A stretch of DNA of 32,000 nt from contig NZ_JAQFIQ010000028.1 of assembly GCF_029504745.1 (NCBI RefSeq), forward strand, positions 369 through 32,368, given 5' to 3'. Under the pieces are notes generated by a model, which saw only the letters and a list, made by a program, of their open reading frames with translations, was not told where the DNA came from and did not search any database. The position numbers and the translations under genes were made by a program. Positions 2,639-29,184 of this stretch are shown one piece after another. This DNA comes from Breznakia sp. PF5-3. GTDB taxonomy: Bacteria > Bacillota_I > Bacilli_A > Erysipelotrichales > Erysipelotrichaceae. Within the stretch, counting starts at the first letter, position 1; each line of letters starts with the position of its first letter.

Positions 2639-2645
2639 ATTTATA

Positions 2646-4329: not shown

Positions 4330-4345
4330 ATAAACATCACCAACC

Positions 4346-5269: not shown

Positions 5270-5272
5270 ACA

Positions 5273-6473: not shown

Positions 6474-6500
6474 GTCGCTTAAAAGCCTTTTAAGGTTCAC
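6474..6500 (-). promoter_or_regulatory. ECF-type promoter P4 (GTGAAC-N17-CGAC) upstream of the bactofilin/LRR/signal-peptidase operon
   Basis: Minus strand: GTGAAC cttaaaaggcttttaag CGAC taaa, 34 nt before the ATG at 6439. Same architecture as P1-P3. The spacer is itself an 8-1-8 palindrome. Confidence 0.6.
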
Positions 6501-6654
6501 TATTTCCAGTATAAAGTGTATTTTTACCATCATTTACCCGAAAAAGCTATGTTCTTTCATGCGAGTGCCCCATAATTATATTAGTCTCTATATACATTAT
6601 AATATAATTTAAATTATTCGCCCAATCATATTATCATTTATATTATAGGTTTTA

Positions 6655-6690
6655 ATATAAAAATATGCAAATACTATTCGTATTTGCATA
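6655..6690 (-). terminator. Intrinsic terminator after the 470-aa secreted-protein gene
   Basis: Minus strand: TATGCAAATACgaataGTATTTGCATA followed by TTTTTAT. Confidence 0.75.
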
Positions 6691-6748
6691 TCGTAATTTT
6701 TCCAAAATATAATATATGTTCAATAAATCATGTTTCATTTATAAATTT

Positions 6749-8089
6749 TTAAAAATCAATTTCGGCTGTGTAATAGTAATTAATTACTACTGGATCTGTT
6801 GATTTTTCCAATACAAAATCTCCACGATCTGCTCCTTGATAAGAGCTTTCTGTCAAGTCTCCAAATTTATATTTATAGTCTTCAATAACGATTGTTGTTC
6901 CTACTTCTAAAGTAACGACTTCTTCTTTATAAACTCGATATTCCTCACCAAGACCTTCTGTATCTACCCAGTGGCGAATGATAATATCTTCTGTGTAATA
7001 AGTTGCGGCATTTGAGAAAACAACTTTATGGGTTCCACTTTTCTTTAATTGTGTCGCTTCTTTTCCTTTACAACATGCTTCATTTGTACGGTATCCAACA
7101 ATGTTTCCATCCTTGAAGTTTGCACTATATGGATCCCCAATCAAACCTTGACCATTATAGTAAATTCCTGCAGGTTCAGAATACCATTGATAGTTACCCA
7201 TATAACACATATTTCTATTTACTGTTGGATACATAGCTGTAACATCAACAGCAACATCATCTGTAACAACCAATCCAGAATTTAAATATATTTCTTGAAC
7301 CATTGCTCCACAGTATGCTCTTAACATTTGTTTATCTGCTTGTAATGCTGAAACTCCACTATAGATATTACGTGAAATTCCAGTAATTGAACTACCTGCA
7401 CCTTCAGCTTGGATATGAGCAATTTGTGTTCTTGCTCCACAACTTCCACCTTCACCACTAACAGTTGCACCTTTCCACGCATAGATATCTCTGTATGCCC
7501 AAATTCCTGTGCTATCAGCTCCTGATGCATAACCATATATTGATGCTGAATAATATGGTTTGATATCGTTATAACACCAAATACCATAATTTATTCCATA
7601 CCCAGAAATTGATCCACCTTCCATTTGAATTTCGTTATATACACGAATTCCAGCTGTAGTTCCTGTTGCACTAACCGTTCCAACACCATTTTTAGTATAT
7701 TTAAATGCTTTTAAATGACCACCAACATTAATACCAAATTCATCTGCTGTATTAGCATTCAAAGCTCCACTACCTCTAAACTCTAAGTCTTTTTTTGTAT
7801 AAATAGAGTTCACATTTACTGGTACTGTATTATTTAAATATATTTTTTGATCTCTTGAACTATAAATTACTGCATTTTCATTCAATAAATAAGTTCCTTT
7901 TTTAGTTGAAAGAATGTTACTACCATCCTTTTGTGTTGTTATTGTTGCATCATATCCTTTCAAGTCAATATTTCCACTTAAAACTGCATAGCTTGATGCA
8001 TCCGCTTTAAATGAAAACGTTAAGACTGAAAAAACCGAAAAAATACTTAACATCACCATAAAACTTTTAAACATTTTGCGCTTCATCAT
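6749..8089 (-). CDS. Secreted protein: Gly/aromatic periodic (beta-helix-like) region plus a C-terminal MucBP-like beta-grasp domain; no anchor
   Basis: I place the start at ATGATG (8089) after GAGGGA. Signal peptide MMKRKMFKSFMVMLSIFSVFSVLTFSFKADA|SS. Recurring G-I-x4-[DE]-I units (GIRVYNEI, GIWCYNDI, GIWAYRDI). The C-terminal IIIRHWVDTEG...VGTTIVIEDYKY...PVVINYYYT resembles MucBP. The family assignment is tentative. Confidence 0.55.
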   Translation of the reverse strand: MMKRKMFKSFMVMLSIFSVFSVLTFSFKADASSYAVLSGNIDLKGYDATITTQKDGSNILSTKKGTYLLNENAVIYSSRDQKIYLNNTVPVNVNSIYTKKDLEFRGSGALNANTADEFGINVGGHLKAFKYTKNGVGTVSATGTTAGIRVYNEIQMEGGSISGYGINYGIWCYNDIKPYYSASIYGYASGADSTGIWAYRDIYAWKGATVSGEGGSCGARTQIAHIQAEGAGSSITGISRNIYSGVSALQADKQMLRAYCGAMVQEIYLNSGLVVTDDVAVDVTAMYPTVNRNMCYMGNYQWYSEPAGIYYNGQGLIGDPYSANFKDGNIVGYRTNEACCKGKEATQLKKSGTHKVVFSNAATYYTEDIIIRHWVDTEGLGEEYRVYKEEVVTLEVGTTIVIEDYKYKFGDLTESSYQGADRGDFVLEKSTDPVVINYYYTAEIDF

Positions 8090-8152
8090 AATTTCTTCAT
8101 TTCCCTCGCTTTCATATGTATTTTTGGATTTATTTACATATATCAAAAGTAT

Positions 8153-8179
8153 GTCGCGCAAGTCCTAAAAAAGGTTTTC
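8153..8179 (-). promoter_or_regulatory. ECF-type promoter P3 (GAAAAC-N17-CGAC) upstream of the secreted-protein gene
   Basis: Minus strand: GAAAAC cttttttaggacttgcg CGAC atac, 63 nt before the ATG at 8089. It shares GACTT..GCGwC.TAC with P1/P2, but the -35 is weaker (AAAC instead of GAAC). It lies inside the TTG-started N-terminal extension of the track ORF. Confidence 0.45.
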
Positions 8180-8267
8180 TTTTTTCTAAAAAAAGTTGTT
8201 TTTTTCATAATTGTTGAACACCTAGTACATATATTAATTTATCATGTTTTCTTTTTTCTTCTTATCG

Positions 8268-8304
8268 ATAAAAAGCAGGTATAAAATATATCATTTATAC
8301 CTGC
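8268..8304 (-). terminator. Intrinsic terminator after the lipoprotein gene
   Basis: Minus strand: GCAGGTATAAAtgatatatTTTATACCTGC followed by TTTTTAT. Confidence 0.8.
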
Positions 8305-8320
8305 ATTCATTTATAGCTAT

Positions 8321-8776
8321 TTATTCAATTTTTCCACAACTATATTCTTCTGCCTCTAATTCTTTTACTAGCTTTTTGATGTTTTTATATTCTTTTATTC
8401 CTAATTCTTTAACATCACCTTCACTTGCTTTACTTGGATCAATTTCTATTTTCACTGATAATTTCTTTTTCTTCTTATCAACTGAAATATCAAATTCTAA
8501 CCCTTTTTGCTTTTTGTTTGGATTTATATAGTCATTCTTATAAAGTTCTTCTAACTCTTCAATTTCATAATCTTCGAACAAGTAATCTGCTAATGCAGCC
8601 TCTCTTGTCACGATAATTTTTTCTACTTTTTTATCACCATCGTATGTAGCTGTTACTTCGTCTACAATTTCTGATGATCCATAATCCAATTTACAAGTTA
8701 CTTCTTTCGCTTTGCTTTCGCCTCCGCATCCTGCTAATACTAGTATTAGACTAAATATCATTACTACTTTTTTCAT
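8321..8776 (-). CDS. Small lipoprotein (151 aa), function unknown
   Basis: MKKVVMIFSLILVLAGC|GG has a canonical lipobox (LAGC). The mature part is Lys/Glu-rich. GGAGG SD upstream. Confidence 0.75.
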   Translation of the reverse strand: MKKVVMIFSLILVLAGCGGESKAKEVTCKLDYGSSEIVDEVTATYDGDKKVEKIIVTREAALADYLFEDYEIEELEELYKNDYINPNKKQKGLEFDISVDKKKKKLSVKIEIDPSKASEGDVKELGIKEYKNIKKLVKELEAEEYSCGKIE

Positions 8777-8841
8777 CTATAAGCCTCCTTCGCTTCATCT
8801 GATGTTATTTTCCTTCCCATAATTTATCATCATTAGGAAGC

Positions 8842-8866
8842 AAAGGAATATCTAAGATATTCCTTT
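8842..8866 (-). terminator. Stem-loop just downstream of the giant adhesin gene (possible weak or partial terminator)
   Basis: AAAGGAATATC-taa-GATATTCCTTT is an 11-bp perfect stem. On the minus strand it is followed by only TTTGCTT, so termination may be leaky into the lipoprotein gene. Confidence 0.5.
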
Positions 8867-8877
8867 CACTCTTATTA

Positions 8878-11800
8878 CTATTCTTCCTCTTCTTTTTTTC
8901 TTTTCACTAAGTAAATCACACTCATAAACGATATGATTCCCATTGCGAATAAACTATTTAAATTCGTATCATCACCTGTTGTTACAGCTGTACTTGGTTT
9001 TGATACAGTTGGAGGTGTTACAGATGGTTTTCTTCCTGGTGTTACAGTCACCTTAATCACTGTTGCATATTCTACACCTTCATGTTCAACACTCAACTTC
9101 ACATCGTATACTCCACCAAGAATTGTACTTCCCTTAACTACTCTTAAGTGTTCTTGGTGTACAGCTATCGATTCTTTTGTTGGTGCCAATGCCCTAGTTT
9201 TTGAATTTATGATTACATCTGCTTCTGACAATTCTAATACTTTTGCTTCATTCATGTTTGATGCTTCAGCATGTGAAATTGTGAAATCTTTCGCTGTAAT
9301 ATCTAGAGCTGTTTTCGTTACATTTACATTCACTGTAACTTTTGTTGTTGGTTCTTTCACTACATGGAATGTTACTTGATATACACCAGCTTCTCCTATT
9401 ACATTATGACTCTCTACTTCAACTTTTGCGCTTGAAAGATCTTTCTTCAACCATGCCTCTGCTTCTGTTAAAGCAATCAATTGATCATTTGTAATTGTTT
9501 CTGCTGTGTGTGAGTTTATTGTAATATGGTTTGCCCCAATATAATATTTATCACCTTTCACAATCACATCTTTTGCTTTTACCTTAATTTTAATAGTTGC
9601 TTTTGTATCTTTTTCTTCATCCACATAGAATGTTGCTGTGTAATCACCTTCAGCCGCCTTAAAGTCTGTTGTTTCCAACTTCACTGTTCCTGCACTCATA
9701 TCTTTACGTTTGAATGCTTCCGCTTTTGATAACTCAATTAATTTTGTATTGTCACTAATTGCTTCTGCTTCTGCTAGTGTCATCACTAAATTGTTGGCAA
9801 CAATTGTATATTCATCTCCGTGTTCGATAACATTTCCATCTTTTACTTTGATTTTGATTGTTGCTTTTGTATCTTTTTCTTCATCCACATAGAATGTTGC
9901 TGTGTAGTCACCTTCAGCGGCCTTGAAGTTTGTTGTTTCAAGTTTTACAGTTCCAGCACTCATATCTTTACGTTTGAATGCTTCTGCTTTTGATAATTTA
10001 ATTAACTCATTGTTATTTTTAATTGCTTCAGCTTCTTCCAATGTCATTACTAAATTGTTAGCTCCGATTGTGTATTCATCTCCGTGCTCAATTACATCTT
10101 TATCGATTACTTTGATTTTAATCGTTGCTTTTGTTGCTTTTTCTTCATCTACATAGAACGTTGCTGTATAGTCACCCTTAGCCGCCTTGAAGTTTGTTGT
10201 TTCCAACTTCACTGTTCCAGCACTCATATCTTTGCGCTTGAATGCTTCTGCTTTTGATAACTCAATTAATTTCGTATTGTCACTAATCGCTTTCGCTTCA
10301 TCTAGTGTCATTACTAAGTTGTTTGCTCCGATTGTGTATTCATCTCCGTGCTCGATTACATCTTTATCGATTACTTTGATTTTAATCGTTGCTTTTGTTG
10401 CTTTTTCTTCATCTACATAGAATGTTGCTGTGTAGTCACCTTTCGCTGCTGTAAAGTTTGTTGTTTCAAGTTTTACTGTTCCAGCACTCATATCATCACG
10501 ATTAATTGCTACAGCTTTTGATAACTCAATTAATTTCGTATTGTCAGTGATTGCTTTTGCTTCATCTAATGTCATTACTAAGTTGTTTGCTCCGATTGTA
10601 TACTTATCTCCATGTTCGATTACATCTTTATCGATTACTTTGATTTTAATCGTTGCTTTTGTATCTTTTTCTTCATCTACATAGAATGTCGCTGTATAGT
10701 TACCTTTCGCTGCTGTAAAGTTTGTTGTTTCCAGCTTCACTGTTCCCACACTCATATCTTTACGTTTGAATGCTTCTGCTTTTGATAACTCAATCAGTTT
10801 TGTATTGTCACTAATTGCTTTCGCTTCATCTAGTGTCATTACTAAGTTGTTTGCAACTAGTGTATATTTATCTCCGTGTTCAATTACATTTCCATCTTTT
10901 ACTTTGATCTTAATAGTCACTTTCGTTGCTTTTTCTTCATCTACATAGAATGTTGCTGTATAGTCACCCTTAGCTGCTGTAAAGTCTGTTGTTTCAAGTT
11001 TTACTGTTCCTGCACTCATATCTTTACGTTTGAATGCTTCTGCTTTTGATAACTCAATCAGTTTCGTATTGTCACTAATTGCTTTCGCTTCATCTAGTGT
11101 CATTACTAAGTTGTTTGCTCCAATTGTATACTTATCTCCGTGTTCGATTACATCTTTATCGATTACTTTGATTTTTACTGTTACTTTCGTTGCTTTTTCT
11201 TCATCTACATAGAATGTTGCTGTGTAATCACCCTTAGCTGCTGTAAAGTTTGTTGTTTCAAGTTTTACTGTTCCTTTGCTTAGGTCTTCTAACTTCCATG
11301 CTTCTGCTTTCGCTTTTTTAACTAACTCACTGTTGTCTGTCATCGCTTTCGCTTCATCGACTGTCATTACAATGTTGCTAGCTACTAGTGTATACTTGTC
11401 GCCTTCTTTGATTACATCGCCATCTACTACTTTCGCGATTGCTTTCACTTCATCTTTTGGATCCGTTGCTGCTTTCACTTTGATAACTACTTCGTAATCT
11501 TTGACTTCTGCTTTATATCCACCATTGTCTTTCACCATCAAGTCTGCACTTGGTACTGGCAATCCTGTTGCGATTGACCATGCTTTTGCTTCTGTCTTTT
11601 CTAAGATTTCAGCGTCTGTTCCGGTTACATCATCTTTCAAGATTACATAGTTATGTAAGTCATATGCATAATCTTTTCCTACATACAATCCTACTGCTAC
11701 TACTCTTGATTTCTTAACTGTATTGTAGTCACTGTCAGTTACACTGTATTCTACTACATACATTCCTTTTTTCGATGTATCTACAGTTCCTGTTGATATT

Positions 11801-14800
11801 ACTTTACTTGTAATATCTTTATCTTCTTCATCGTATGCACTAACTCCATGTTTGTAGTCATATGCATCCCCAATATTTAAACTCATGAATTCTGGATTCA
11901 CTGTTAATACTGGCGCATTTCCGTTCACTACTTTTACAGCTACACGAACTTCTGTTGCTGGTTCTTCTGCTACATAGAATGTAACATAGTATGTTCCTAC
12001 GGTTCCTTCAACATTGTGTGTTTTCACTTTTACTGTTCCTGCACTCATGTCTTTACGTTTGAACGCTTCTGCTTTTGTAAGATCAATCAATTGATCATTA
12101 GTAATACTTTCGGCAACACTTCTTGTGATTTCAATGTTGTTAGCTCCGATTGTATACTTATCTCCATGTTCGATTACATCTTTATCGATTACTTTGATTT
12201 TAATCGTTGCTTTTGTATCTTTTTCTTCATCTACATAGAATGTCGCTGTGTAGTCACCTTTTGCTGCTGTAAAGTTTGTTGTTTCAAGTTTTACTGTTCC
12301 TGCACTCATATCATCACGATTAATTGCTACAGCTTTTGATAACTCAATCAGTTTTGTGTTGTCAGTGATTGCTTTCGCTTCATCGACTGTCATTACTAAG
12401 TTGTTAGCTCCGATTGTATACTTATCTCCGTGTTCGATTACATCTTTATCGATTACTTTGATTTTAATCGCTGCTTTCGTTGCTTTTTCTTCATCTACAT
12501 AGAATGTTGCTGTGTAGTCTCCATTAGCTGCCTTGAAGTTTGTTGTTTCAAGTTTTACTGTTCCCACACTCATATCTTTACGTTTGAATGCTTCTGCTTT
12601 CGATAACTCAATCAGTTTTGTATTGTCACTAACCGCTTTCGCTTCATCTAGTGTCATTACTAAGTTGTTGGCAACGATTGTATATTCATCTCCATGTTCA
12701 ATGACATTTCCATCTTTTACTTTGATCTTAATTGTTACTTTCGTCGCTTTTTCTTCATCCACATAGAATGTTGCTGTGTAGTCACCTTCTGCTGCCTTGA
12801 AGTTTGTTGTTTCAAGCTTTACTGTTCCTGCACTCATATCTTTACGTTTGAATGCTTCTGCTTTCGATAACTCAATCAGTTTTGTATTGTCACTAACCGC
12901 TTTCGCTTCATCTAGTGTCATTACTAAGTTGTTTGCTCCGATTGTATACTTATCTCCATGTTCGATTACATCTTTATCGATTACTTTGATTTTTACTGTT
13001 ACTTTCGTTGCTTTTTCTTCATCCACATAGAATGTTGCTGTATAGTCTCCCTTAGCTGCTGTAAAGTTTGTTGTTTCAAGTTTTACTGTTCCTTTGCTTA
13101 GGTCTTCTAACTTCCATGCTTCCGCTTTCGATAACTCAATCAGTTTTGTATTGTCACTAACCGCTTTCGCTTCATCGACTGTCATTACAATGTTGCTAGC
13201 TACTAGTGTATACTTGTCTCCTTCTTTGATTACATCGCCATCTACTACTTTTGCGATTGCTTTCACTTCATCTTTTGGATCCGTTGCCGCTTTCACTTTG
13301 ATAACTACTTCATAATCTTTGACTTCTGCCTTGTATCCACCATTGTCTTTCACCATCAAGTCTGCACTTGGTACTGGCAATCCTGTTGCGATTGACCATG
13401 CTTTTGCTTCTGTCTTTTCTAAGATTTCTGCATCTGTTCCTGTTACATCATCTTTCAAGATTACATAGTTGTGTAAATCATATGCATAATCTTTTCCTAC
13501 ATACAATCCTACTGCTACTACTCTTGATTTTTTAACTGTATTGTAGTCACTGTCAGTTACACTGTATTCTACTACATACATTCCTTTTTTCGATGTATCA
13601 ACAGTTCCTGTTGATATTACTTTACTTGTAATATCTTTATCTTCTTCATCATATGCACTAACTCCATGTTTGTAGTCATATGTATCTCCAATATTTAAAC
13701 TCATGAATTCTGGATTCACTGTTAATACTGGTGCATTTCCGTTCACTACTTTTACAGATACACGAACTTCTGTTGCTGGTTCTTCTGCTACATAGAATGT
13801 AACATAGTATGTTCCTACGGTTCCTTCAACATTGTGTGTTTTCACTTTTACTGTTCCTACACTCATGTCTTTACGTTTGAACGCTTCTGCTTTTGTAAGA
13901 TCAATCAATTGATCATTAGTAATACTTTCAGCTACACTTCTTGTAATTTCAATGTTGTTTGCTCCGATTGTATACTTATCTCCGTGCTCGATTACATCTT
14001 TATCGATTACTTTAATTTTAATCGTTGCTTTCGTTGCTTTTTCTTCATCTACATAGAATGTCGCTGTGTAGTCACCCTTAGCTGCTGTAAAGTTTGTTGT
14101 TTCAAGCTTTACTGTTCCTGCACTCATGTCTTTACGTTTGAATGCTTCTGCTTTTGATAACTCAATCAGTTTTGTGTTGTCACTAATTGCTTTCGCTTCA
14201 TCTAGTGTCATTACTAAGTTGTTTGCTCCGATTGTATACTTATCTCCGTGTTCGATTACATCTTTATCGATTACTTTGATTTTAATCGTTGCTTTTGTTG
14301 CTTTTTCTTCATCTACATAGAATGTTGCTGTATAGTCACCCTTAGCTGCGGCAAAGTTTGTTGTTTCAAGTTTTACTGTTCCTTTGCTTAGGTCTTCTAA
14401 CTTCCATGCTTCTGCTTTCGCTTTGCCTACTAACTCACTGTTGTCTGTCATCGCTTTCGCTTCATCGACTGTCATTACAATGTTGCTAGCTACTAGTGTA
14501 TACTTGTCACCTTCTTTGATTACATCGCCATCTACTACTTTCGCAATTGCTTTCACTTCATCTTTTGGATCTGTTGCTGCTTTTGCTTTGATAACTACTT
14601 CGTAATCTTTGACTTCTGCTTTATATCCACCATTGTCTTTTACCATGATTTCCGATTGTGCAAGTTTTAAACCTGTTTTCGTTGACCATGCTTCTACTTC
14701 TGTCTTTTCTAAGATTTCTGCGTCTGTTCCTGTTACATCATCTTTCAAGATTACATAGTTGTGTAAATCATATGCATAATCTTTTCCTACATACAATCCT

Positions 14801-17800
14801 ACTGCTACTACTCTTGATTTTTTAACTATATTGTAGTCACTGTCAGTTACACTGTATTCTACTACATACATTCCTTTTTTCGATGTATCTACAGTTCCTG
14901 TTGATATTACTTTACTTGTAATATCTTTATCTTCTTCATCGTATGCACTAACTCCATATTTGTAGTCATATGCATCTCCAATATTTAAACTCATGAATTC
15001 TGGATTCACTGTTAATACTGGTGCATTTCCATTAATTACAGTTACTTTAACTTTTACAGTTGTTGATGGATTTTCTTTCACTTGGAAAATAGCATAGTAT
15101 GAAGTTGAAGTGGTATCAGTTCCGATATTTGCTTCTTTTACTTCTACTGCTACTGTACTAAAGTCTTTTACTTTCCATCCTTCTGCATTACCCCAATCAA
15201 TTAAATTATTATTTGTATAATTTTCTGCTTGGCTTCTTGTAATTGTAATGTTATTTGCTCCAATTGCATAATGTTCTTCTGATGTTAATTCATCTTTTTT
15301 CATTACTTTAATTGTAATTGTTGCTTTTGTTGCTTTTTCTTCATCCACATAGAATGTTGCTGTATAAGTACCTTCAGCTGCCTTGAAATCTGTTGTTTCA
15401 AGTTTTACTGTTCCAGCACTCATATCATCACGATTAATTGCTACAGCTTTTGATAACTCAATCAGCTTCGTATTGTCAGTGATTGCTTTCGCTTGCTCAA
15501 CATTCATTACTAAGTTATTAGCTCCGATTGTATATTTGCTTCCTGTTTCAATCACATGCTTATCGATTACTTTGATTTTAATCGTTGCTTTCGTTGCTTT
15601 TTCTTCATCTACATAGAATGTCGCTGTGTAGTCACCCTTAGCTGCTGTAAAGTTTGTTGTTTCAAGCTTTACTGTTCCTGCACTCATGTCTTTACGTTTG
15701 AATGCTTCTGCTTTTGATAACTCAATCAGTTTTGTATTGTCACTAATTGCTTTCGCTTCATCTAGTGTCATTACTAAGTTGTTTGCAACTAGTGTATATT
15801 TATCTCCGTGTTCAATGACATTTCCATCTTTTACTTTGATCTTAATCGTTACTTTCGTCGCTTTTTCTTCATCCACATAGAATGTTGCTGTGTAGTCACC
15901 TTCTGCTGCCTTGAAGTTTGTTGTTTCAAGTTTTACTGTTCCAGCACTCATATCTTTACGTTTGAATGCTTCTGCTTTTGATAACTCAATCAGTTTCGTA
16001 TTGTCACTAATTGCTTTCGCTTCATCTAGTGTCATTACTAAGTTGTTTGCTCCAATTGTATACTTATCTCCGTGTTCGATTACATCTTTATCAATTACTT
16101 TGATTTTTACTGTTACTTTCGTTGCTTTTTCTTCATCTACATAGAATGTTGCTGTATAGTCTCCCTTAGCTGCTGTAAAGTTTGTTGTTTCAAGTTTTAC
16201 TGTTCCTTTGCTTAGGTCTTCTAACTTCCATGCTTCTGCTTTCGCTTTTTTAACTAACTCACTGTTGTCTGTCATCGCTTTCGCTTCATCGACTGTCATT
16301 ACAATGTTGCTAGCTACTAGTGTATACTTGTCGCCTTCTTTGATTACATCGCCATCTACTACTTTCGCGATTGCTTTCACTTCATCTTTTGGATCCGTTG
16401 CCGCTTTCACTTTGATAACTACTTCATAATCTTTGACTTCTGCTTTATATCCACCATTGTCTTTCACCATCAAGTCTGCACTTGGTATTGGCAGTCCTGT
16501 TGCGATTGACCATGCTTTTGCTTCTGTCTTTTCTAAGATTTCAGCATCTGTTCCGGTTACATCATCTTTCAAGATTACATAGTTATGTAAGTCATATGCA
16601 TAATCTTTTCCTACATACAATCCTACTGCTACTACTCTTGATTTCTTAACTGTATTGTAGTCACTGTCAGTTACACTGTATTCTACTACATACATTCCTT
16701 TTTTCGATGTATCTACAGTTCCTGTTGATATTACTTTACTTGTAATATCCTTATCTTCTTCATCGTATGCACTAACTCCATGTTTGTAGTCATATACATC
16801 CCCAATATTTAAACTCATGAATTCTGGATTCACTGTTAATACTGGCGCATTTCCGTTCACTACTTTTACAGCTACACGAACTTCTGTTGCTGGTTCTTCT
16901 GCTACATAGAATGTAACATAGTATGTTCCTACGGTTCCTTCAACATTGTGTGTTTTCACTTTTACAGTTCCTGCACTCATGTCTTTACGTTTGAACGCTT
17001 CTGCTTTTGTAAGATCAATCAATTGATCATTAGTAATACTTTCGGCAACACTTCTTGTGATTTCAATGTTGTTTGCTCCGATTGTATACTTATCTCCATG
17101 TTCGATTACATCTTTATCGATTACTTTGATTTTTACTGTTACTTTCGTTGCTTTTTCTTCATCCACATAGAATGTCGCTGTGTAGTCACCTTTCGCTGCT
17201 GTAAAGTTTGTTGTTTCAAGTTTTACTGTTCCTGCACTCATATCTTTACGTTTGAATGCTTCTGCTTTCGATAACTCAATCAGTTTCGTATTGTCACTAA
17301 TTGCTTTCGCTTCATCTAGTGTCATTACTAAGTTATTTGCTCCGATTGTGTATTCATCTCCGTGTTCGATTACATCTTTATCGATTACTTTGATTTTAAT
17401 CGTTGCCTTTGTTGCTTTTTCTTCATCTACATAGAATGTCGCTGTGTAGTCACCTTTCGCTGCTGTAAAGTTTGTTGCTTCAAGTTTTACTGTTCCTGCA
17501 CTCATGTCTTTACGTTTGAATGCTTCTGCTTTTGATAACTCAATTAATTTCGTATTGTCACTAACCGCTTTCGCTTCATCTAGTGTCATTACTAAGTTGT
17601 TAGCTCCGATTGTATACTTATCTCCGTGTTCGATTACATCTTTATCGATTACTTTGATTTTTACTGTTACTTTCGTTGCTTTTTCTTCATCCACATAGAA
17701 TGTTGCTGTGTAGTCTCCCTTAGCTGCTGTAAAGTTTGTTGTTTCAAGTTTTACTGTTCCTTTGCTTAGGTCTTCTAACTTCCATGCTTCTGCTTTCGCT

Positions 17801-20800
17801 TTTTTAACTAACTCATTGTTGTCTGTCATCGCTTTCGCTTCATCGACTGTCATTACAATGTTGCTAGCTACTAGTGTATACTTGTCGCCTTCTTTGATTA
17901 CATCGCCATCTACTACTTTCGCAATTGCTTTCACTTCATCTTTTGGATCTGTTGCTGCTTTTGCTTTGATAACTACTTCGTAATCTTTGACTTCTGCTTT
18001 ATATCCACCATTGTCTTTTACCATGATTTCCGATTGTGCAAGTTTTAAACCTGTTTTCGTTGACCATGCTTCTACTTCTGTCTTTTCTAAGATTTCAGCA
18101 TCTGTTCCGGTTACATCATCTTTCAAGATTACATAGTTATGTAAGTCATATGCATAATCTTTTCCTACATACAATCCTACTGCTACTACTCTTGATTTCT
18201 TAACTGTATTGTAGTCACTGTCAGTTACACTGTATTCTACTACATACATTCCTTTTTTCGATGTATCTACAGTTCCTGTTGATATTACTTTACTTGTAAT
18301 ATCTTTATCTTCTTCATCGTATGCACTAACTCCATGTTTGTAGTCATATGCATCCCCAATATTTAAACTCATGAATTCTGGATTCACTGTTAATACTGGT
18401 GCATTTCCATTAATTACAGTTACTTTAACTTTTACAGTTGTTGATGGATGTTCTTTCACTTGGTAAACAACATAATAATCTGTTGAAGTAGTATCAGTTC
18501 CAATATTCGCTTCTTTCACTTCTACTGCTACTGTACTAAAGTCTTTTACTTTCCATCCTTCTGCATTACCCCAATTAATTAAATTATCATTTGTATAATT
18601 TTCTGCTTGGCTTCTTGTAATTGTAATGTTATTTGCTCCAATTGCATAATGATCTTCTGATGTTAATTCATCTTTCTTCATTACTTTAATTGTAATTGTT
18701 GCTTTTGTATCTTTTTCTTCATCTACATAGAATGTTGCTGTATAAGTACCTTCTGCTGCTTTGAAATCTGTTGTTTCAAGTTTTACTGTTCCTGCACTCA
18801 TATCATCACGATTAATTGCTACAGCTTTTGATAACTCAATCAGTTTTGTGTTGTCAGTGATTGCTTTCGCTTGCTCAACATTCATCACTAAGTTATTAGC
18901 TCCGATTGTATATTTGCTACCTGTTTCAATCACATGCTTGTCGATTACTTTGATTTTAATCGTTGCTTTTGTTGCTTTTTCTTCATCTACATAGAATATC
19001 GCTGTATAGTCACCCTTAGCTGCTGTAAAGTTTGTTGTTTCAAGTTTTACTGTTCCTGCACTCATGTCTTTACGTTTGAATGCTTCTGCTTTTGATAACT
19101 CAATCAGTTTTGTATTGTCACTAATTGCTTTCGCTTCATCTAGTGTCATTACTAAGTTGTTTGCAACTAGTGTATATTTATCTCCGTGTTCAATGACATT
19201 TCCATCTTTTACTTTGATCTTAATAGTTACTTTCGTTGCTTTTTCTTCATCTACATAGAATGTTGCTGTGTAGTCACCTTCAGCTGCCTTGAAGTTTGTT
19301 GTTTCAAGTTTTACTGTTCCAGCACTCATATCTTTACGTTTGAATGCTTCTGCTTTTGATAACTCAATCAGTTTTGTATTGTCACTAATCGCTTTCGCTT
19401 CATCTAGTGTCATTACTAAGTTGTTTGCTCCGATTGTATACTTATCTCCGTGTTCGATTACATCTTTATCGATTACTTTGATTTTTACTGTTACTTTCGT
19501 TGCTTTTTCTTCATCCACATAGAATGTCGCTGTATAGTCTCCCTTAGCTGCTGTAAAGTTTGTTGTTTCAAGTTTTACTGTTCCTTTGCTTAGGTCTTCT
19601 AACTTCCATGCTTCTGCTTTCGCTTTTTTAACTAACTCACTGTTGTCTGTCATCGCTTTCGCTTCATCGACTGTCATTACAATGTTGCTAGCTACTAGTG
19701 TATACTTGTCGCCTTCTTTGATTACATCGCCATCTACTACTTTCGCGATTGCTTTCACTTCATCTTTTGGATCCGTTGCTGCTTTCACTTTGATAACTAC
19801 TTCGTAATCTTTGACTTCTGCTTTATATCCACCATTGTCTTTCACCATCAAGTCTGCACTTGGTATTGGCAGTCCTGTTGCGATTGACCATGCTTTTGCT
19901 TCTGTCTTTTCTAAGATTTCAGCATCTGTTCCGGTTACATCATCTTTCAAGATTACATAGTTATGTAAGTCATATGCATAATCTTTTCCTACATACAATC
20001 CTACTGCTACTACTCTTGATTTCTTAACTGTATTGTAGTCACTGTCAGTTACACTGTATTCTACTACATACATTCCTTTTTTCGATGTATCTACAGTTCC
20101 TGTTGATATTACTTTACTTGTAATATCTTTATCTTCTTCATCATATGCACTAACTCCATGTTTGTAGTCATATGCATCCCCAATATTTAAACTCATGAAT
20201 TCTGGATTCACTGTTAATACTGGTGCTTTTCCATTAATTACGTTTACATCTACCGTTGCTTTTACACTTGGATCTGCATCTACCTTGAAAGTCGCTTTAT
20301 ATAATGATGCAACTCCCTTTACAGTATGTGTATCTAAGGATACTGCTACTTCACTACGATCAGATCTCTTCCATCCTTTCGCACCTGTCAACGATTTTAA
20401 TTCTGTCGCTGCATATGTTGCATTATCTTCGATTTTCTTTGCTTCACCTAAGCGAATCTCAATATGGTTTGCTCCTATGATATATTCATCATTTACTTCT
20501 ACTACATCATATGGTAATACTTCAAAGGTTACTTCTTTTGTGATAGTTTCTTCTTTTCCTACACTAAAGACTACCTTATATTCTCCAGCTTCTGCTTTAT
20601 ATCCACCTTTTGATTTAACTTTTACAGGTGTTTCTGTACCTAAAGATGTATCGATTGCTTTCGCTTTCGCTAAATTAATAAAGTCTTGATCATCTACTAC
20701 TAATTTAGCATTATCTAACCCGATGATTACATCATTTGCACTAATCGTATATAACACTTTTTGAACAATCACTTTCGTTGCTGCTTTAAAAGTAGCATCG

Positions 20801-23403: not shown

Positions 23404-23484
23404 TTAATACCCTCCTCCTATTGGCTTTTATTCAAGCAAATATCACACATATGAAAAATCAATTTTCATAATGAGTATCGGTAA

Positions 23485-23511
23485 GACGCATAAGTCAAAA
23501 TTCAGGTTCAT
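23485..23511 (-). promoter_or_regulatory. ECF-type promoter P2 (ATGAAC-N17-CGTC) upstream of the giant adhesin gene
   Basis: Minus strand: ATGAAC ctgaattttgacttatg CGTC ttac. It starts 25 nt after the stop of the LRR gene and lies ~81 nt before the adhesin ATG. Near-identical to P1 across TGACTTAwGCGTCwTAC. Confidence 0.65.
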
Positions 23512-23535
23512 TATTTTTTAAAAAAATTGAAAAAT

Positions 23536-26211
23536 TTATTGTAAACCTTCAAGATTGCGTTTTTTCCAAAATTTGCATAATAAACAGCCACTTAAACTAA
23601 GTAAAAATAAATTGAATTCTATCCTTTCACCATGTCTATCTCCTGCGGAAACAACTGCCTTGCTAAGGGTTTCATTCTCACTTTGCATTGACTTGCTTTT
23701 TCCACCAGCGATACTCATAGCATTCTTCGCATCAACAACCACCTCTACAGAAAGTTCACCTTCTATAGAATTCCCTGAATAGTCTTGTGCGATCGCTGAA
23801 AAAGTTAACTTAAAGACACCTCCTTCTATGTTGACTTCATTTATTTTTTTTAGTTGTTTTTCATTTACTTTTATAATATTGTCATTACTTTTTTCGTCCA
23901 GTTTATGATATATCTTAATTTCCGCTTCCCCAATAGCATCTTCTGCTTGTAAAGCTTTCGCTTCATCATACGTCAGATGTATATTTCTACCTGAAATTAT
24001 CATTTCCTCATTTGGTCCAATTGGATATGTATTATTACCATAAACGGTTACTGTAACTTTTTTACTTACTTCATAGTTGTTTGCTTTTATTGTATATAGC
24101 AGTTCAAACACACCACCTTGTGATGATACATTTTTAATCTGCTGCCATTGTTCTTCATGTATGCCAATACTACTACCAACATCAGCAAATCCACTTATTT
24201 GTCCATCGGTTGTTCGTTTCATCAAAAATGAGCGAACGTTAGATTTACTTATTGCTTGACTCTTTGTTAAGCTTTGCACTTCATCATATGTAAATTGCAG
24301 ATTATCTGCACCAATTACTAGATTTGATAAACTATCCATAACACTATTTCTATTTGTTATTAATACTTGAATTGTTTTTGTTCCTTTTTTACCATCCTTA
24401 TTTATTGCTTCATAATTAACATCATAGATTCCAATAGCATTAAATTCTGCATTCCCATTCTTAAGTGCATAATGAATATCATCATAATCAATTGCTTGTT
24501 TTATTGGTTCTGCACCAATAGTATCCTGTGCCTTTAACCAATATGCATCCACACGATTTCGAATACTATAATCTATATTCGTATTTCCCAGTTCATATTT
24601 TTGTGGTTTCGCAAGAATTACAGGCTGACCATGAACTTTTATTTTTCTTTGATATGTTGCACTATAGCCTTCTGTATCTTCGATTGAATAGGTCACTTGA
24701 TAAGTCCCTGCTTTTTTATTGTTAATATTCGTAGATGCAACCTCAACATCACTTGTAATATCATTTCCTAAGATATCGTATGCTTTCACATCTTTCATCA
24801 AATCATATGTATCGCCTACGTATAATTCTATGTCATTTGCTGTAAAGCTTGGTTCTTCCCACCAAATAATCGGTTGGGTTACTTCTCCAACATACCATGT
24901 ATCATCACCAAAATAATTTAATGAATATTGATAAACATCATCGGCAGTTGGATCTAGTGTTAATTCAATTGATTCATATGTTTGTCCATCTATTGTCATT
25001 GGAATTGTATTCCCATAACGATCTTTCACAATTGATGTAACTATAACCTTTCCAGTTGCTTTATCACCAATTAATGAAGTCTCATTTGTATAGCGTTGAC
25101 CCTGATTATTGTTTGGATCTTGATATGGATCTGCATCAGAATTATGTCTTACATAAACAACAGCAGAAACATTCGCTAACGCTGATAAATCCGTAACATG
25201 ATTGTTATTAAGCCAAATTGCTGCATTTCCATTTGTAGTAATTGTTGCTAATGGTGATATATCCGTAATATTGTTATTAGATAACTGCAATATATTAATC
25301 TTTGTAAGATTTGATAAAGGCGTGATATCGGTAATATTGTTATGATTTAATATAAGTCGCTTAGCATCTGTATAATGTTCAAAAATACTAATATCTGTAA
25401 TATTGTTATTTTGAAAATGAAATACTACTTCTGGAATACAATCTGTTATTGGCAAAGTATTTAAATCATCATCATCAATGCCATTATTATTAAACATAAT
25501 TTGCTCATCCAAATTTGGAAACCTAGAAGCTGTTAAAATTGAAAAATCATGAATCTCATTGGTTCCTGTGTTCCAATTATTAAATTCCATCTGAGATAAA
25601 TATGGATAAACAGTATTGCGCATTGGCTCTAAACTTTTAATATTGTGATCATTCAAATAAATATAACGTAGTGAAGTCATATACTCAATCCCTTGAAGAT
25701 CACGAATACGTTTAGTAGGATTATTTTCAATATAATAAATACTATCTACCTGTCCCAAATCCTCGATTGTGAAATTGCTATCTAAACCCTTTTCAAACAC
25801 TAGGTAATTATAAAAGTTAATATCTGGAACAAGATCAATCCCTGTAGCAGCACGAGTAGAAATTTGCTTTTGGATTTCTGTAATTTGAATTTCTTGTGTT
25901 GCCTTAGTTACCTTATTATCCATTTCATAAGTAATTGTTAAAGTATATACACCATTTTCTTCAATGATAATAGTAGGATCATTTATATCTAAAATAGTAT
26001 CTTCAAATACAAGTTCACGAATTCCATATGTTTGTATTGCTTCTTTCGAGATGTTAATCTTAGCTCTTTGATTATGCAACTCATAGAAAGTAGTATATGT
26101 TAACGTAAAATTCTCATCTGCATCAGCTTCATTTAAAAGTACAAAACAACTAATTAGTAAATATGAAAACACGATACATATAAATTTTACAAAATTTTGT
26201 TTATACCTCAT
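23536..26211 (-). CDS. Internalin-like LRR surface protein with Ig-like (DUF5011-type) domains, two copies of the adhesin-type ~88-aa repeat fold, and a C-terminal SAGD + TM + basic tail
   Basis: Start taken at ATG 26211 (MRYKQNFVKFICIVFSYLLISCFVLLNEADA; signal peptide, possible LISC lipobox). 22-residue LRRs (NNITDITPLSNLTKINILQLSNNNITDISPLATI...NNNHVTDLSALANV). DUF5011-like FTANDIELYVGDTYDLMKDVKAYDILGNDITSDV...GTYQVTYSIEDTEGY. C-terminal LFLLSLSGCLLCKFWKKRN. Confidence 0.75.
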   Translation of the reverse strand: MRYKQNFVKFICIVFSYLLISCFVLLNEADADENFTLTYTTFYELHNQRAKINISKEAIQTYGIRELVFEDTILDINDPTIIIEENGVYTLTITYEMDNKVTKATQEIQITEIQKQISTRAATGIDLVPDINFYNYLVFEKGLDSNFTIEDLGQVDSIYYIENNPTKRIRDLQGIEYMTSLRYIYLNDHNIKSLEPMRNTVYPYLSQMEFNNWNTGTNEIHDFSILTASRFPNLDEQIMFNNNGIDDDDLNTLPITDCIPEVVFHFQNNNITDISIFEHYTDAKRLILNHNNITDITPLSNLTKINILQLSNNNITDISPLATITTNGNAAIWLNNNHVTDLSALANVSAVVYVRHNSDADPYQDPNNNQGQRYTNETSLIGDKATGKVIVTSIVKDRYGNTIPMTIDGQTYESIELTLDPTADDVYQYSLNYFGDDTWYVGEVTQPIIWWEEPSFTANDIELYVGDTYDLMKDVKAYDILGNDITSDVEVASTNINNKKAGTYQVTYSIEDTEGYSATYQRKIKVHGQPVILAKPQKYELGNTNIDYSIRNRVDAYWLKAQDTIGAEPIKQAIDYDDIHYALKNGNAEFNAIGIYDVNYEAINKDGKKGTKTIQVLITNRNSVMDSLSNLVIGADNLQFTYDEVQSLTKSQAISKSNVRSFLMKRTTDGQISGFADVGSSIGIHEEQWQQIKNVSSQGGVFELLYTIKANNYEVSKKVTVTVYGNNTYPIGPNEEMIISGRNIHLTYDEAKALQAEDAIGEAEIKIYHKLDEKSNDNIIKVNEKQLKKINEVNIEGGVFKLTFSAIAQDYSGNSIEGELSVEVVVDAKNAMSIAGGKSKSMQSENETLSKAVVSAGDRHGERIEFNLFLLSLSGCLLCKFWKKRNLEGLQ

Positions 26212-27391
26212 TACGCACAACCTTCTTTCTCTTTTGATAGTATAGATAAATAAGTACAATCAATAATGATATAATAAATGGAATTGCACTAATCAACAGT
26301 TTGAATGGAAAAGATTTTTCGGCATTAATTTTAAGTTTAGTAAAAAAATCAATATAGAATCTCTCAGGCGAAGAAACTATTTTACTATCATATTCTGTGT
26401 ATATACTTCCTTCAATGATTTTATCCACACGATAGGATAATCCTGATTTTGATATTTCATCCTTTTGGTACAATGCATACACAACTGTATCCTCTGTGAT
26501 ATCATGCAAATCTTCCGACCACCCTAAAAATGTATTATTATTTTTCTTCGGTCCTGCAATGGCTTCACCATCATCTCCATAATTTACAAAAGTTTGATAA
26601 TAAAGTTCATTATCTACATAATATGAAACACGATATTGCTTAATCACAAATGTAGCATATAAATTCATTGATTTTTTTATCTTTTCGCCATTATAAAAAA
26701 AACCTTTTCCATCTAACTGTGTATTAAAGCCAAGAAAACGATATCCTTTTTTCGAAACAAGTGGAGTATCTACTACTTGATTATTTTTCACCTTTATTTG
26801 TTTCAACAATATCGTTCCATCATAGAAATTAACTGTATGAGTTGTATTATTGAATCCAAACTTTCCTCGAAACGCATGTTCATAGGTTTCGCTTTTATCA
26901 CCCATGGTAATTTCACTAGATAATATTTTCATATCTACACTGATTTTATCTCGTGAAGACCCGATTGTCATAACTTCTAAATCATAAGTTGTTTTCGTAC
27001 TATTTAAAGCAATCGCTTTTCCATTATTGAGATAAGAAGTATATTCATCCTGTGAAGCATTACGACCATTAATTTTTAATACTCCCTTATAATAATCTTT
27101 AAATTTGATACCTTCTTTTTCTATAAATAAAATTTTAGAGTCAACCACTCCTGAATGATTCACTACATTCATTGTAATTTTAACAGTTGATCCATAAGGA
27201 ACATCTGTAGTACTCTCTAGGCTATATGCCTGTCCTGAAGCAGATATTACTTTAGCACTTGAAGATAGTGACAAATCAAAGTAAACCTCTTTTGCTTCCA
27301 CGCTAAAAATACCAGTGAGTAAACTAAACACCACTGATATCGTTAACACTGCAAATGTTACTACCTTTCTTATTGTCCCTGTCTTATTCAT
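26201..27391 (-). CDS. Membrane protein with two Listeria-Bacteroides (Flg_new / InlB B-repeat type) repeats and a C-terminal TM anchor
   Basis: Start taken at ATG 27391, 7 nt after the sigma gene stop; the track start is a TTG at 27409. Signal peptide MNKTGTIRKVVTFAVLTISVVFSLLTGIFSVEA|K. Repeats HTVNFYDG...KKGYRFLGFNT...MNLYATF and YRVSYYVDN...NNTFLGWSED...TVVYALY. C-terminal LISAIPFIISLLIVLIYLYYQKRKK. Its last 11 nt overlap the next gene start. Confidence 0.7.
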   Translation of the reverse strand: MNKTGTIRKVVTFAVLTISVVFSLLTGIFSVEAKEVYFDLSLSSSAKVISASGQAYSLESTTDVPYGSTVKITMNVVNHSGVVDSKILFIEKEGIKFKDYYKGVLKINGRNASQDEYTSYLNNGKAIALNSTKTTYDLEVMTIGSSRDKISVDMKILSSEITMGDKSETYEHAFRGKFGFNNTTHTVNFYDGTILLKQIKVKNNQVVDTPLVSKKGYRFLGFNTQLDGKGFFYNGEKIKKSMNLYATFVIKQYRVSYYVDNELYYQTFVNYGDDGEAIAGPKKNNNTFLGWSEDLHDITEDTVVYALYQKDEISKSGLSYRVDKIIEGSIYTEYDSKIVSSPERFYIDFFTKLKINAEKSFPFKLLISAIPFIISLLIVLIYLYYQKRKKVVRNEV

Positions 27392-27398
27392 ATTCGCC

Positions 27399-28718
27399 CT
27401 AACTTTCAATATTCACTATATAAGAAATCATATTTCCTGATTTATCATAAATAGTTACATAAACCTCTCCTTCAAATTCTTTTTTTATTTCGCCATTTTT
27501 TGGAATTGCTATTTTCTCTTCTTTATACAAAATATAAGATGAAGCATAATTTAGCCCTAAACCTTCATCTTTTAATTTGACTGATAAAGTTCCATCTTCA
27601 TAACCAATATCAACCATCTCTGGTGCTTTTTTATCAATATTGTCAATCGATATTTTTTGAATATCCTCAGCAACTTTGATTGTATAATCACCATTTCTTT
27701 CAACTTGGAATGATAAAACATCATTCTGGATATCAAAAGCAATCGCTTCCTTTCCTTGTTTTACATTAACTTTAGATTTCTCAACATTCTTATTTAACTT
27801 TGCTTTTACTTCAATTTTCTTATTTGTTGGTTCTTGATAATAACTTATATCTAGAATTTGTGGTGTCTCTGTATTCAAGTTTTGATATACCACATAACTT
27901 CCTGCAGCTCCTAATCCAAGGATTCCTACAAGTGCCGCTTTTGCTATATCAGATATAAAATTACCTCCTATCGCCGCTGCTGGAACAACCACAGATGCGG
28001 CATTGGATCCAGAATGAATAATTTTGTTATAGATTTCAGTCGCTCCACTCGTAGACATCTTATTTTTTTGAATAATGTCAGCAAACAATCGATATGCGAA
28101 TGGGGTAAACGTAAACCCGAAATACTTAGCTGGAGAATATCCTCGTTCTGCTAATCCAGGTTTAATAACTTTCCTAATTCTTCTAAGTCTTGTTTTTACT
28201 GTACCTTCTGGTATCTTTAGTATATAGGCAATCTCATTAATTGATAGCCCTTCATAATACTTCAACATCCCGACTTCAAAAAACTTATCAGAAAGTTGAT
28301 TAAGTTCTGATTTAATCGCATCATAAACTTCTTTACTTTCTACTTCGTGTACTTGATCATTATCAACACGAATAATTTCTTCTAAATTTGTCTCTTCGTT
28401 TAAATCAACTTGTTTTGATCGTTTACGGTAAAGCGATTGTGAACGATTAAACGCAATCGTGAAAAGCCAAGAATGAAAAGCTTTATTAGACTTTAAAACT
28501 TGGATATTTTCAAATACATTCACAAATGTTTCCTGTACAATTTCTTCTGCATCTGCTGCATTCTTCATCAACTTCAAACCAAAGTAATAAATCGAGTCCC
28601 GATAAAAATCATATATCACATTAAATGCTTCAATATCACCATTACGAAAACGTTCGATATATTCAACATCGATTTCTCTTCGATTTCCTGTTTTTTTATA
28701 CTCTTTCTTGGATTTCAT
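27399..28718 (-). CDS. ECF (group 4) sigma-70 factor fused to a linker, one TM helix and a ~160-aa extracytoplasmic domain (single-chain sigma/anti-sigma-like protein)
   Basis: Region 2: DAEEIVQETFVNVFENIQVLKSNKAFHSWLFTIAFNRSQSLYRK. Region 4.2 HTH: LSINEIAYILKIPEGTVKTRLRRIRKVIK (aa ~20-187). Hydrophobic helix IAKAALVGILGLGAAGSYVVY (aa ~257-278, nt 27885-27950). Beta-rich C-terminal part with an Ig-like DKKAPEMV...DEGLGLNY segment. No separate anti-sigma gene lies adjacent. Confidence 0.85.
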   Translation of the reverse strand: MKSKKEYKKTGNRREIDVEYIERFRNGDIEAFNVIYDFYRDSIYYFGLKLMKNAADAEEIVQETFVNVFENIQVLKSNKAFHSWLFTIAFNRSQSLYRKRSKQVDLNEETNLEEIIRVDNDQVHEVESKEVYDAIKSELNQLSDKFFEVGMLKYYEGLSINEIAYILKIPEGTVKTRLRRIRKVIKPGLAERGYSPAKYFGFTFTPFAYRLFADIIQKNKMSTSGATEIYNKIIHSGSNAASVVVPAAAIGGNFISDIAKAALVGILGLGAAGSYVVYQNLNTETPQILDISYYQEPTNKKIEVKAKLNKNVEKSKVNVKQGKEAIAFDIQNDVLSFQVERNGDYTIKVAEDIQKISIDNIDKKAPEMVDIGYEDGTLSVKLKDEGLGLNYASSYILYKEEKIAIPKNGEIKKEFEGEVYVTIYDKSGNMISYIVNIES

Positions 28719-28747
28719 AAAGTATCGCCCCCATCCACTTCATGTAT

Positions 28748-28774
28748 GACGCTTAAGTCAGCGAAAAAGTTCAC
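28748..28774 (-). promoter_or_regulatory. ECF-type promoter P1 (GTGAAC-N17-CGTC) upstream of the sigma operon (putative autoregulation)
   Basis: Minus strand: GTGAAC tttttcgctgacttaag CGTC atac, 29 nt before the sigma ATG and immediately downstream of the grcA-like terminator. Confidence 0.65.
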
Positions 28775-28811: not shown

Positions 28812-28860
28812 AATAAAAAATGTTGTAACTTGCTATTTTTTCGTAATGAATTACAACATT
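28812..28860 (-). terminator. Terminator after the glycyl-radical peptide gene; upstream boundary of the surface island
   Basis: Minus strand: AATGTTGTAA-(22-nt loop)-TTACAACATT followed by TTTTTTATT. The large loop lowers confidence. Confidence 0.55.
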
Positions 28861-29103: not shown

Positions 29104-29184
29104 AAGTATACCAACCTTTCTATTGCTTATACCTATGTATAATATAACGCATCTATGTTGTAATGATAAACTATTTGCCCAGAA

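Follow-up and report, generated by a model that had tools for sequence, protein, structure and literature searches.

The extracytoplasmic function (ECF) sigma factors SigW, SigX, and SigM of Bacillus subtilis recognize promoters with AAC in the −35 box and CGT or CGA, followed by TAA-like bases, in the −10 box, the boxes being 16 to 17 nucleotides (nt) apart. In the B. subtilis SigV/RsiV system, signal peptidase I makes the first cleavage. ECF sigma factors usually autoregulate and control neighboring genes, which is an accepted basis for predicting their promoters (PMC7826278). Fused membrane sigma/anti-sigma proteins that are activated by regulated proteolysis have been documented, among them IutY and SCO4117 (PMC8999054), and Clostridium thermocellum has multiple autoregulated SigI/RsgI pairs that control neighboring genes for large extracellular proteins (PMC4711584). 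Here, we describe a locus of Breznakia sp. PF5-3 that resembles each of these systems in part. It lies in a stretch of 32,000 nt (contig NZ_JAQFIQ010000028.1, positions 369 to 32,368), called the window below, and combines the gene for an ECF sigma factor, four predicted ECF-type promoters (P1 to P4), and genes for surface proteins that include a giant adhesin. Literature searches on Breznakia and on ECF-controlled adhesins in Firmicutes returned nothing on this system.

Our analysis makes it likely that P1 to P4 are ECF-type promoters, and the factor most likely to read them is the sigma factor encoded at 27399–28718. P1 would then provide positive autoregulation, and P2 to P4 would place three more transcription units under the same switch.

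Predicted promoters in the window and in related loci

All four sites are on the minus strand. P1 (28748–28774; GTGAAC-N17-CGTC) lies 29 nt before the ATG of the sigma gene and is its predicted autoregulatory promoter. P2 (23485–23511; ATGAAC-N17-CGTC) lies 81 nt before a gene for a 4,841-amino-acid (aa) adhesin, and P3 (8153–8179; GAAAAC-N17-CGAC) lies 63 nt before the ATG (8089) of a gene for a 446-aa secreted protein. P4 (6474–6500; GTGAAC-N17-CGAC) lies 34 nt before an operon for a bactofilin, a leucine-rich repeat (LRR) protein, and an S26 signal peptidase. These gaps were counted from the last C of CGWC to the ATG. Each site is in noncoding DNA and has the same orientation as its downstream gene; a mechanically assigned TTG start at 8161 overlaps P3 only formally, the real start of that gene being the ATG at 8089. 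A preliminary description of this DNA had given the four sites as minus-strand AAC-N17-CGWC sequences 29 to 81 nt before a start codon, and both the sequences and the distances were exact. The predicted promoter most likely has the −35 box (G/A)TGAAC(C), a 17-nt gap, and the −10 box CG(T/A)C followed by TAA or TAC.

The preliminary description had also cautioned that the bare motif is short enough to arise by chance. AAC-N17-CGWC has five matches in the window versus 2.1 expected, and one of the five is intragenic. All five are on the minus strand, and the same boxes at spacings of 14 to 16 or 18 to 20 nt gave 0 to 3 matches each; only the 17-nt spacing and the minus strand show the excess. 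A more extended pattern, RAAC-N11-CTTNNGCGWC, which was defined post hoc, had three matches in the window versus 0 expected.

To score the sites with information from outside the window, we used a position weight matrix (PWM) made from 13 sites of other genomes. Among the ~64,000 window positions, it ranked P2, P4, P3, and P1 as 1 to 4 (26.0, 22.7, 12.0, and 11.2 bits), and the next-best match had 8.5 bits. In a Markov-shuffled null, 0.21 matches per window reached 11.2 bits or more. A leave-one-locus-out scan (FIMO-like, 11 nonredundant loci, ~174 kb, both strands, threshold of ≥14 bits) scored P1 at 17.2, P2 at 27.9, P3 at 18.3, and P4 at 27.0 bits. Of its matches, 19 fell within the 11,225 positions that lie upstream of a gene in the orientation of that gene, 2 in other intergenic DNA, and 2 in 323,846 genic positions, one of the last two being 80 nt before a giant gene. 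The motif is ~270-fold denser upstream of genes than inside them. A whole-genome comparison of intergenic with intragenic DNA had been suggested as a check on the motif, which passes it on the ~174 kb covered here. P1 to P4 therefore go beyond chance, because a matrix from foreign genomes ranks them 1 to 4 and because of the upstream enrichment.

The fifth bare match (AAC-N17-CGAC; 25356–25379, minus strand) is in the sense orientation within the LRR-coding repeats of a gene for a protein with LRR and immunoglobulin (Ig)-like domains. It was outside the top 15 with the 13-site PWM and had 13.2 bits with the larger leave-one-locus-out PWM. We treat it as probably due to chance because it is inside these repeats and has no start codon context downstream; it might also be a weak internal promoter. 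Its GCTAAGCGAC resembles the extended −10 box of the window sites.

We compared 12 further loci that encode full-length homologues of the sigma factor (29 to 59% protein identity), making 13 distinct loci with the window (the others are referred to by L numbers). TGAAC(C)-N17-NNTC-TAA is found upstream of the sigma gene or operon in 12 of the 13 loci (11 of the 12 further ones), and in 9 of 13 (8 of 12) the large surface-protein gene next to it is headed by a copy as well. In L001, the motif reaches the sigma gene through the bactofilin, LRR, and S26 genes, which directly precede it there. Twenty-eight sites across loci gave the consensus AAAA..TGAACC-N16-CGTCTAA. The motif goes with the sigma gene into unrelated genomic contexts, and orthologous upstream regions share little outside the −35 and −10 boxes. 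When the regions before the adhesin genes of the window, L001, and L003 are compared, ATGAACC stands out as the one invariant and longest block; parts of the −10 box are also kept, whereas the spacers differ. P4 and the orthologous L001 site at 7224 have AGTGAACCT, GCGACTAA, and the ribosome-binding site in common, and the adhesin gene of L093 is preceded by the same GAAAACC −35 variant as P3. Conversely, a PWM from the four window sites had its top matches before the sigma operon or a neighboring gene in L001, L003, L007, and L008 and its second match there in L010. Because the sites beat chance and the motif recurs beside the sigma homologues, the positively autoregulated ECF regulon that had been proposed is well supported computationally: the sites have ECF architecture, and they stand before the sigma gene and three other units.

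The −10 box differs in flavor among loci. It is CAACTAAT twice in L003, GAACTAA twice in L095, TCTAACCA twice in L005, TGTCTAAA in L007, L010, and L094, and CG(T/A)C(T/A)TAC in the window and L093. Identity of the −10 block is 0.62 within a locus versus 0.50 between loci (permutation p ~1e-4). Sigma factors that each read their own neighbors would be expected to leave such a pattern, which is the best available argument for recognition in cis. When genome contigs were searched with the family alignment, the search responded to peptides generic to ECF factors and yielded 79 unrelated ECF loci but only one true relative (L011).

Some motif copies in other loci have no large gene after them. Those at L010 7154 and L094 6142 follow the gene next to the sigma gene (the +1 gene, see below), and that at L007 15044 follows a surface-protein gene. 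After the L010 copy there is only a 34-aa open reading frame (ORF) and then a convergent MgsA/RuvB-like gene; after the L094 copy there is also a convergent MgsA/RuvB-like gene, with no called ORF between. An adhesin gene that once followed these trailing copies may have been lost, leaving them as orphan promoters, or they may drive small or antisense transcripts. Four loci also have a gene for a 111- to 117-aa protein with its own motif copy (L007 9504–9857, L010 3065–3403, L094 2916–3251, and L008 8586–8930). In L007 and L094 this gene immediately precedes the sigma gene, and in L008 and L010 a Zip transporter gene stands between the two; the window has no such gene. The L007 protein has a weak sigma70 region 4-like helix-turn-helix (E 8.5e-5, below the cutoff).

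The sigma factor and alternative readings

The 439-aa product of 27399–28718 (minus strand) is an ECF (group 4) sigma factor, as the preliminary description had concluded. The only Pfam sigma regions found were Sigma70_r2 (aa 38–102) and Sigma70_r4_2 (aa 134–183), with no region 1.1 or 3, and the protein scored 85.8 bits with the NCBIfam model TIGR02937 (sigma70-ECF; cutoff, 42.9). The top fold and sequence matches (Foldseek, PDB) were all ECF sigma factors, with B. subtilis SigW being the closest (33% identity). However, the cutoffs of the SigW equivalog models were not reached (114.5 versus 209 bits for NF007223 and 104.8 versus 243.1 bits for TIGR02948); the protein passes the general ECF model and no specific one.

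The family alignment, an AlphaFold2 (AF2) model, and hydropathy were used to describe the rest of the protein. Regions sigma2 and sigma4 (aa 20–190) are followed by a conserved linker (RGYSPxKYFSFxFTP in the alignment), a Gly/Ala-rich hydrophobic segment (~aa 255–280), and two Ig-like domains (aa 284–439). In the alignment, the hydrophobic stretch is variable and is preceded by a conserved lysine. The conserved C-terminal domain of ~155 aa was modeled as two beta-sandwich Ig-like domains with a predicted local distance difference test (pLDDT) score of ~90. An exhaustive search with the ~250-aa extension alone gave 99 representative clusters, most of 410 to 465 aa and matching at the C-terminal end, and the three that were sampled have N-terminal ECF sigma domains (Pfam). 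Five matches (P0040, P0091, P0108, P0119, and P0129) are giant proteins from other organisms with 6 to 15 repeats of the Ig-like module, and one of the two giant proteins examined (P0091) carries SLH domains. This supports an extracytoplasmic location for the C-terminal domain of the sigma factor.

We also considered how the sigma factor might be held inactive. No neighboring anti-sigma factor with a cytoplasmic anti-sigma domain was found; the conserved +1 protein has almost no cytoplasmic part. Such a neighbor is common in ECF systems without being obligatory. Presumably, the C-terminal extension takes over the anti-sigma role in this family. Pfam found no FecR, zinc-finger (ZAS), or carbohydrate-binding domain in the extension. 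Homology of the ectodomain to the repeats of the locus's own adhesin, which would have pointed to homophilic sensing, was rejected because there was no significant similarity (E above 2). Intramolecular anti-sigma docking may or may not take place; AF2 placed the linker without confidence.

In the mechanism that we propose, the sigma domain would be fused, through the conserved linker and the weakly hydrophobic Gly/Ala-rich segment, to two Ig-like domains predicted to face outward. The tethered protein would be inactive until a surface signal triggered cleavage, and the released sigma domain of ~190 aa would bind core RNA polymerase. At this need for release or activation the preliminary description had only hinted. 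It would then transcribe its own gene from P1, the adhesin and a lipoprotein gene from P2, the gene for the 446-aa secreted protein from P3, and the bactofilin/LRR/signal peptidase I operon from P4. By analogy, activation is likely to resemble that of the hybrid sigma/anti-sigma proteins IutY and SCO4117.

A more elaborate form of this mechanism is conceivable, but we regard it as doubtful. The sigma factor would be a self-contained surface sensor whose Ig-like ectodomain, together with the secreted +1 protein, senses when the cell touches a host or substrate surface or what state its adhesin layer is in. The Gly/Ala-rich segment would be cleaved at its outer end, possibly by the S26 peptidase of the regulon, which would add a second positive-feedback loop, and the released sigma factor would fire the adhesin genes. 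Three cassettes with their own −10 flavors would then be orthogonal switches among alternative giant adhesins. Cleavage of the sigma factor by S26 is speculation based on an N-in, C-out orientation and the small residues with which the hydrophobic segment ends on the outside.

Several observations weigh against an autoregulated regulon controlled by a tethered sigma factor. The AF2 linker (aa 196–283) has a pLDDT of <50, and the 19-residue Kyte-Doolittle mean of the hydrophobic segment is only ~1.4 to 1.7 in most family members. Because the membrane segment is marginally hydrophobic and the linker was modeled with low confidence, tethering and release are only putative, and because the FecR and zinc-finger modules of IutY-type hybrids are absent, we infer them by analogy. 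As for the promoters, sites in the other loci were picked partly by eye with the motif known. P1 and P3 are only moderate with the first PWM (11 to 12 bits, with a null maximum of up to 19), and the reverse PWM had no convincing match in L005, L009, or L011. No recognizable motif copy was seen upstream of the sigma gene in L011 (a Coprobacillaceae metagenome-assembled genome). Paralogous cassettes and sigma-70-like hexamers also count against it, and they bear on the alternatives that follow.

P1 to P4 might be genuine ECF promoters that are read by a different sigma factor, or by several, the candidates being a paralogue (P0004 or P0017) or a general envelope stress ECF factor, so that the cis-encoded protein is not the master or not the only switch. 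Breznakia sp. PF5-3 (GCA_029504775.1) has at least three paralogous sigma cassettes: that of the window, L003 with P0004 (contig 7; sites at 9046 and 9926), and L009 with P0017 (contig 63; sites at 5109 and 6570). The motifs of the two paralogous cassettes overlap with those of the window, which makes cross-recognition possible, and AAC and CGT boxes are common to many ECF groups. The L003 site at 9046 (GGAACC-N-AAGCGTC) fits the window flavor and has 18 bits with the window-only PWM. As AAC-CTTTTTCGGATTATAAG-CGTC, it shares most of its spacer with P1 (AAC-TTTTTCGCTGACTTAAG-CGTC), which suggests shared ancestry or cross-regulation between cassettes. Of the alternatives to strict cis-specificity, cross-regulation among paralogues is the most serious. 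However, the −10 blocks are more alike within than between loci, the motif accompanies the sigma gene into unrelated contexts, and a copy is directly before the sigma gene or operon in all but one of the 13 loci. A different sigma factor is therefore unlikely, and from the sequences we infer that P1 to P4 are recognized by the cis-encoded factor rather than by a paralogue.

It is very improbable that the motif is the operator of a non-sigma DNA-binding regulator and that the genes have ordinary sigma-A promoters. Sigma-70-like hexamers do occur in the AT-rich intergenic DNA, for example at 6671–6642 near P4 (10 of 12 matches). However, the element is bipartite and nonpalindromic, its two boxes are a constant 17 nt apart and are those of ECF promoters, its orientation always matches that of the gene, and it ends 29 to 81 nt before the start codon. 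Furthermore, no other regulator gene is conserved with the motif, whereas the sigma gene is always present. That the four matches are functionless, arising by chance or left over from duplicated intergenic DNA, is scarcely credible. The shortness of the bare motif and the intragenic match speak for chance, but the ranking by the foreign-genome PWM and the upstream enrichment speak against it, as does the retention of the boxes, but not of spacers and flanks, across such divergent loci. The spacers of the four window sites also differ from one another.

Transcription units and flanking genes

If P1 to P4 are ECF promoters read by the cis-encoded sigma factor, then the predicted regulon comprises four units, all on the minus strand. 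Unit 1 continues from the sigma gene into the +1 gene (26201–27391), whose product has a signal peptide, a Listeria-Bacteroides (Flg_new) repeat, and a C-terminal membrane anchor. Inspection of its termini indicated that this protein is almost wholly extracytoplasmic. It has homologues in seven further loci (L001, L003, L005, L007, L008, L010, and L011), which are those with a +1 gene that were compared by BLAST; L009 has no +1 gene. The last gene of unit 1 (23536–26211) encodes the internalin-like LRR and Ig-like surface protein, which also has a C-terminal anchor. BLAST found orthologues in L001 and L003, and the gene at the same position in L093 and L095 encodes LRR_4 and Bact_surface_Ig-like domains.

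Unit 2 begins with the adhesin gene (8878–23403). The 4,841-aa protein has a signal peptide, a pectate lyase-like adhesive domain, many Ig-like repeats, and a C-terminal anchor, and its orthologues are in L001 (52%) and L003 (41%). A gene for a 151-aa lipoprotein (8321–8776) is probably cotranscribed with it. This lipoprotein shares 31% identity with a DUF1307 lipoprotein of L003 whose gene has a motif copy to itself. A hairpin without a U-run (8842–8866, minus strand; −14.3 kcal/mol, z −3.6) separates the adhesin stop codon from the lipoprotein gene and could be an RNA-stabilizing or partial-termination element within unit 2. Unit 3 is the gene for the 446-aa protein (6749–8089). The preliminary description had called this protein secreted and beta-helix-like; the first part holds, but the second has only a weak, subthreshold Cthe_2159-like match behind it.

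Unit 4 encodes a membrane-anchored bactofilin of 388 aa (5273–6439; Pfam Bactofilin, E 3.5e-25), a BspA-type LRR surface protein with a C-terminal anchor (4346–5269), and a type I signal peptidase of family S26 (3760–4329; SMxPT, K, and GDNR boxes; Pfam E 2.2e-38; TIGR02227 above the cutoff). All three had been named correctly before. This trio is linked to the sigma cassette in 3 of the 13 loci: downstream of the adhesin gene in the window (3760–6439, minus strand), directly upstream on the same strand in L001 (7283–9955), and divergently in L095 (173–2488). Its presence beside the cassette in three arrangements argues for a functional link. The region upstream of the L095 trio has no ECF motif; sigma-A-like hexamers are present there. 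The adhesin, +1, LRR/Ig, and BspA-type LRR proteins all end with a hydrophobic helix and a K/R-rich tail, and no LPXTG sorting signal was visible in the C-terminal sequences of the island proteins that we read. Surface display of these proteins appears, from their sequences, to rely on C-terminal membrane anchors.

Intrinsic terminators end unit 2 just upstream of P3 (8275–8304; −16.2 kcal/mol, z −5.7, followed by UUUUU) and unit 3 upstream of P4 (6662–6692; −15.5 kcal/mol, z −6.0, with a U-run), both on the minus strand. Because these terminators sit directly before P3 and P4, units 3 and 4 need separate promoters. However, no terminator was found between unit 1 and P2. This qualifies the assignment of P2, since read-through from unit 1 into the adhesin gene is possible. 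Terminators had been proposed at both ends of the locus, and a hairpin is present at each. The one at 28812–28860 (minus strand; −13.7 kcal/mol, z −4.2), with its U-run, ends the upstream GrcA-like gene and insulates P1; the terminator-like hairpin and U-run at 3698–3732 (minus strand; −10.1 kcal/mol), which end unit 4, are weaker (z −1.1). No RNA family of Rfam matches any part of the window; the long 5′ leaders of P2 and P3 thus correspond to no known riboswitch. The GC content is 0.30 to 0.36 throughout the window, with no compositional sign of a foreign island or horizontal acquisition.

Beyond P1, the flank consists of three DegV genes and the GrcA-like gene. The latter (28870–29109, minus strand) lies between the DegV genes and the sigma gene, and it encodes a glycyl radical protein of 79 aa (PF01228, E 2e-22), just under the 80-aa ORF cutoff. 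The other flank (80–3600) is a metal and oxidative stress cluster. It encodes a P-type metal ATPase with a C-terminal HMA domain (80–2332) and a CsoR/RcnR-type repressor (2336–2608), both on the plus strand, and rubrerythrin (2646–3275) and a Fur/PerR-family regulator (3208–3600), both on the minus strand. The mechanically called ORFs of the last two overlap by 68 nt.

Significance and comparison with known systems

The layout of this locus follows the known ECF rule of autoregulation plus control of neighboring genes, and it leaves the current understanding of ECF regulation unchanged. What adds interest is that giant adhesins, a bactofilin, and a signal peptidase make up the cargo, that the sigma factor is fused to its own putative sensor and accompanied by a secreted partner, and that three cassettes with distinct promoter flavors occur in one genome. 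The predictions assign the giant adhesins of a scarcely studied insect gut genus to a regulon that is ready for testing, with four promoters, one regulator, and the consensus TGAACC-N16-CGTC-TAA from a dozen related loci. They also define a small family (~80 clusters at 50% identity) of sigma factors that carry an Ig-like surface domain in the same chain and have a secreted protein as partner, and most members match in length and layout. The lineage-specific −10 variants are natural material for studying insulation between paralogous ECF sigma factors and for building orthogonal ECF switches.

Like SigW, SigX, and SigM of B. subtilis and sigma-E of Escherichia coli, the Breznakia protein has only regions sigma2 and sigma4, its predicted promoters are of the AAC/CGT-CGA type, and a copy precedes its own gene. 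It differs in that no separate anti-sigma factor with a cytoplasmic anti-sigma domain accompanies it. Furthermore, its predicted regulon consists of giant adhesins, a bactofilin, and a signal peptidase and not of envelope stress or detoxification genes. SigI/RsgI of C. thermocellum offers a different parallel, with several paralogous sigma-sensor cassettes per genome, paralogue-specific promoter variants, and neighboring genes for large extracellular proteins. However, SigI is not an ECF factor, RsgI is a separate anti-sigma factor with carbohydrate-binding modules, and the targets are cellulosomal enzymes rather than adhesins.

The likeness to SigV/RsiV concerns the protease. A type I signal peptidase could cut the outer end of an N-in, C-out segment, the G, A, and S residues there would fit, and an S26 peptidase is in the predicted regulon. 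Here, however, the peptidase would act on the sigma factor rather than on a distinct anti-sigma protein, and an S26 gene is beside the cassette in only 3 of the 13 loci. In its predicted overall design, the Breznakia protein is like IutY of Pseudomonas putida (ECF243), SCO4117 of Streptomyces coelicolor (ECF52), ECF48, and ECF53, in all of which a membrane segment and an extracytoplasmic domain follow the sigma domain on its C-terminal side; by analogy, release by proteolysis would be expected. It is distinguished from the IutY and SCO4117 hybrids by two Ig-like modules in place of FecR, ZAS, or carbohydrate-binding domains, by a short family-specific linker, by marginally supported membrane insertion, by a secreted +1 partner, and by its host, a member of the Bacillota (Erysipelotrichaceae).

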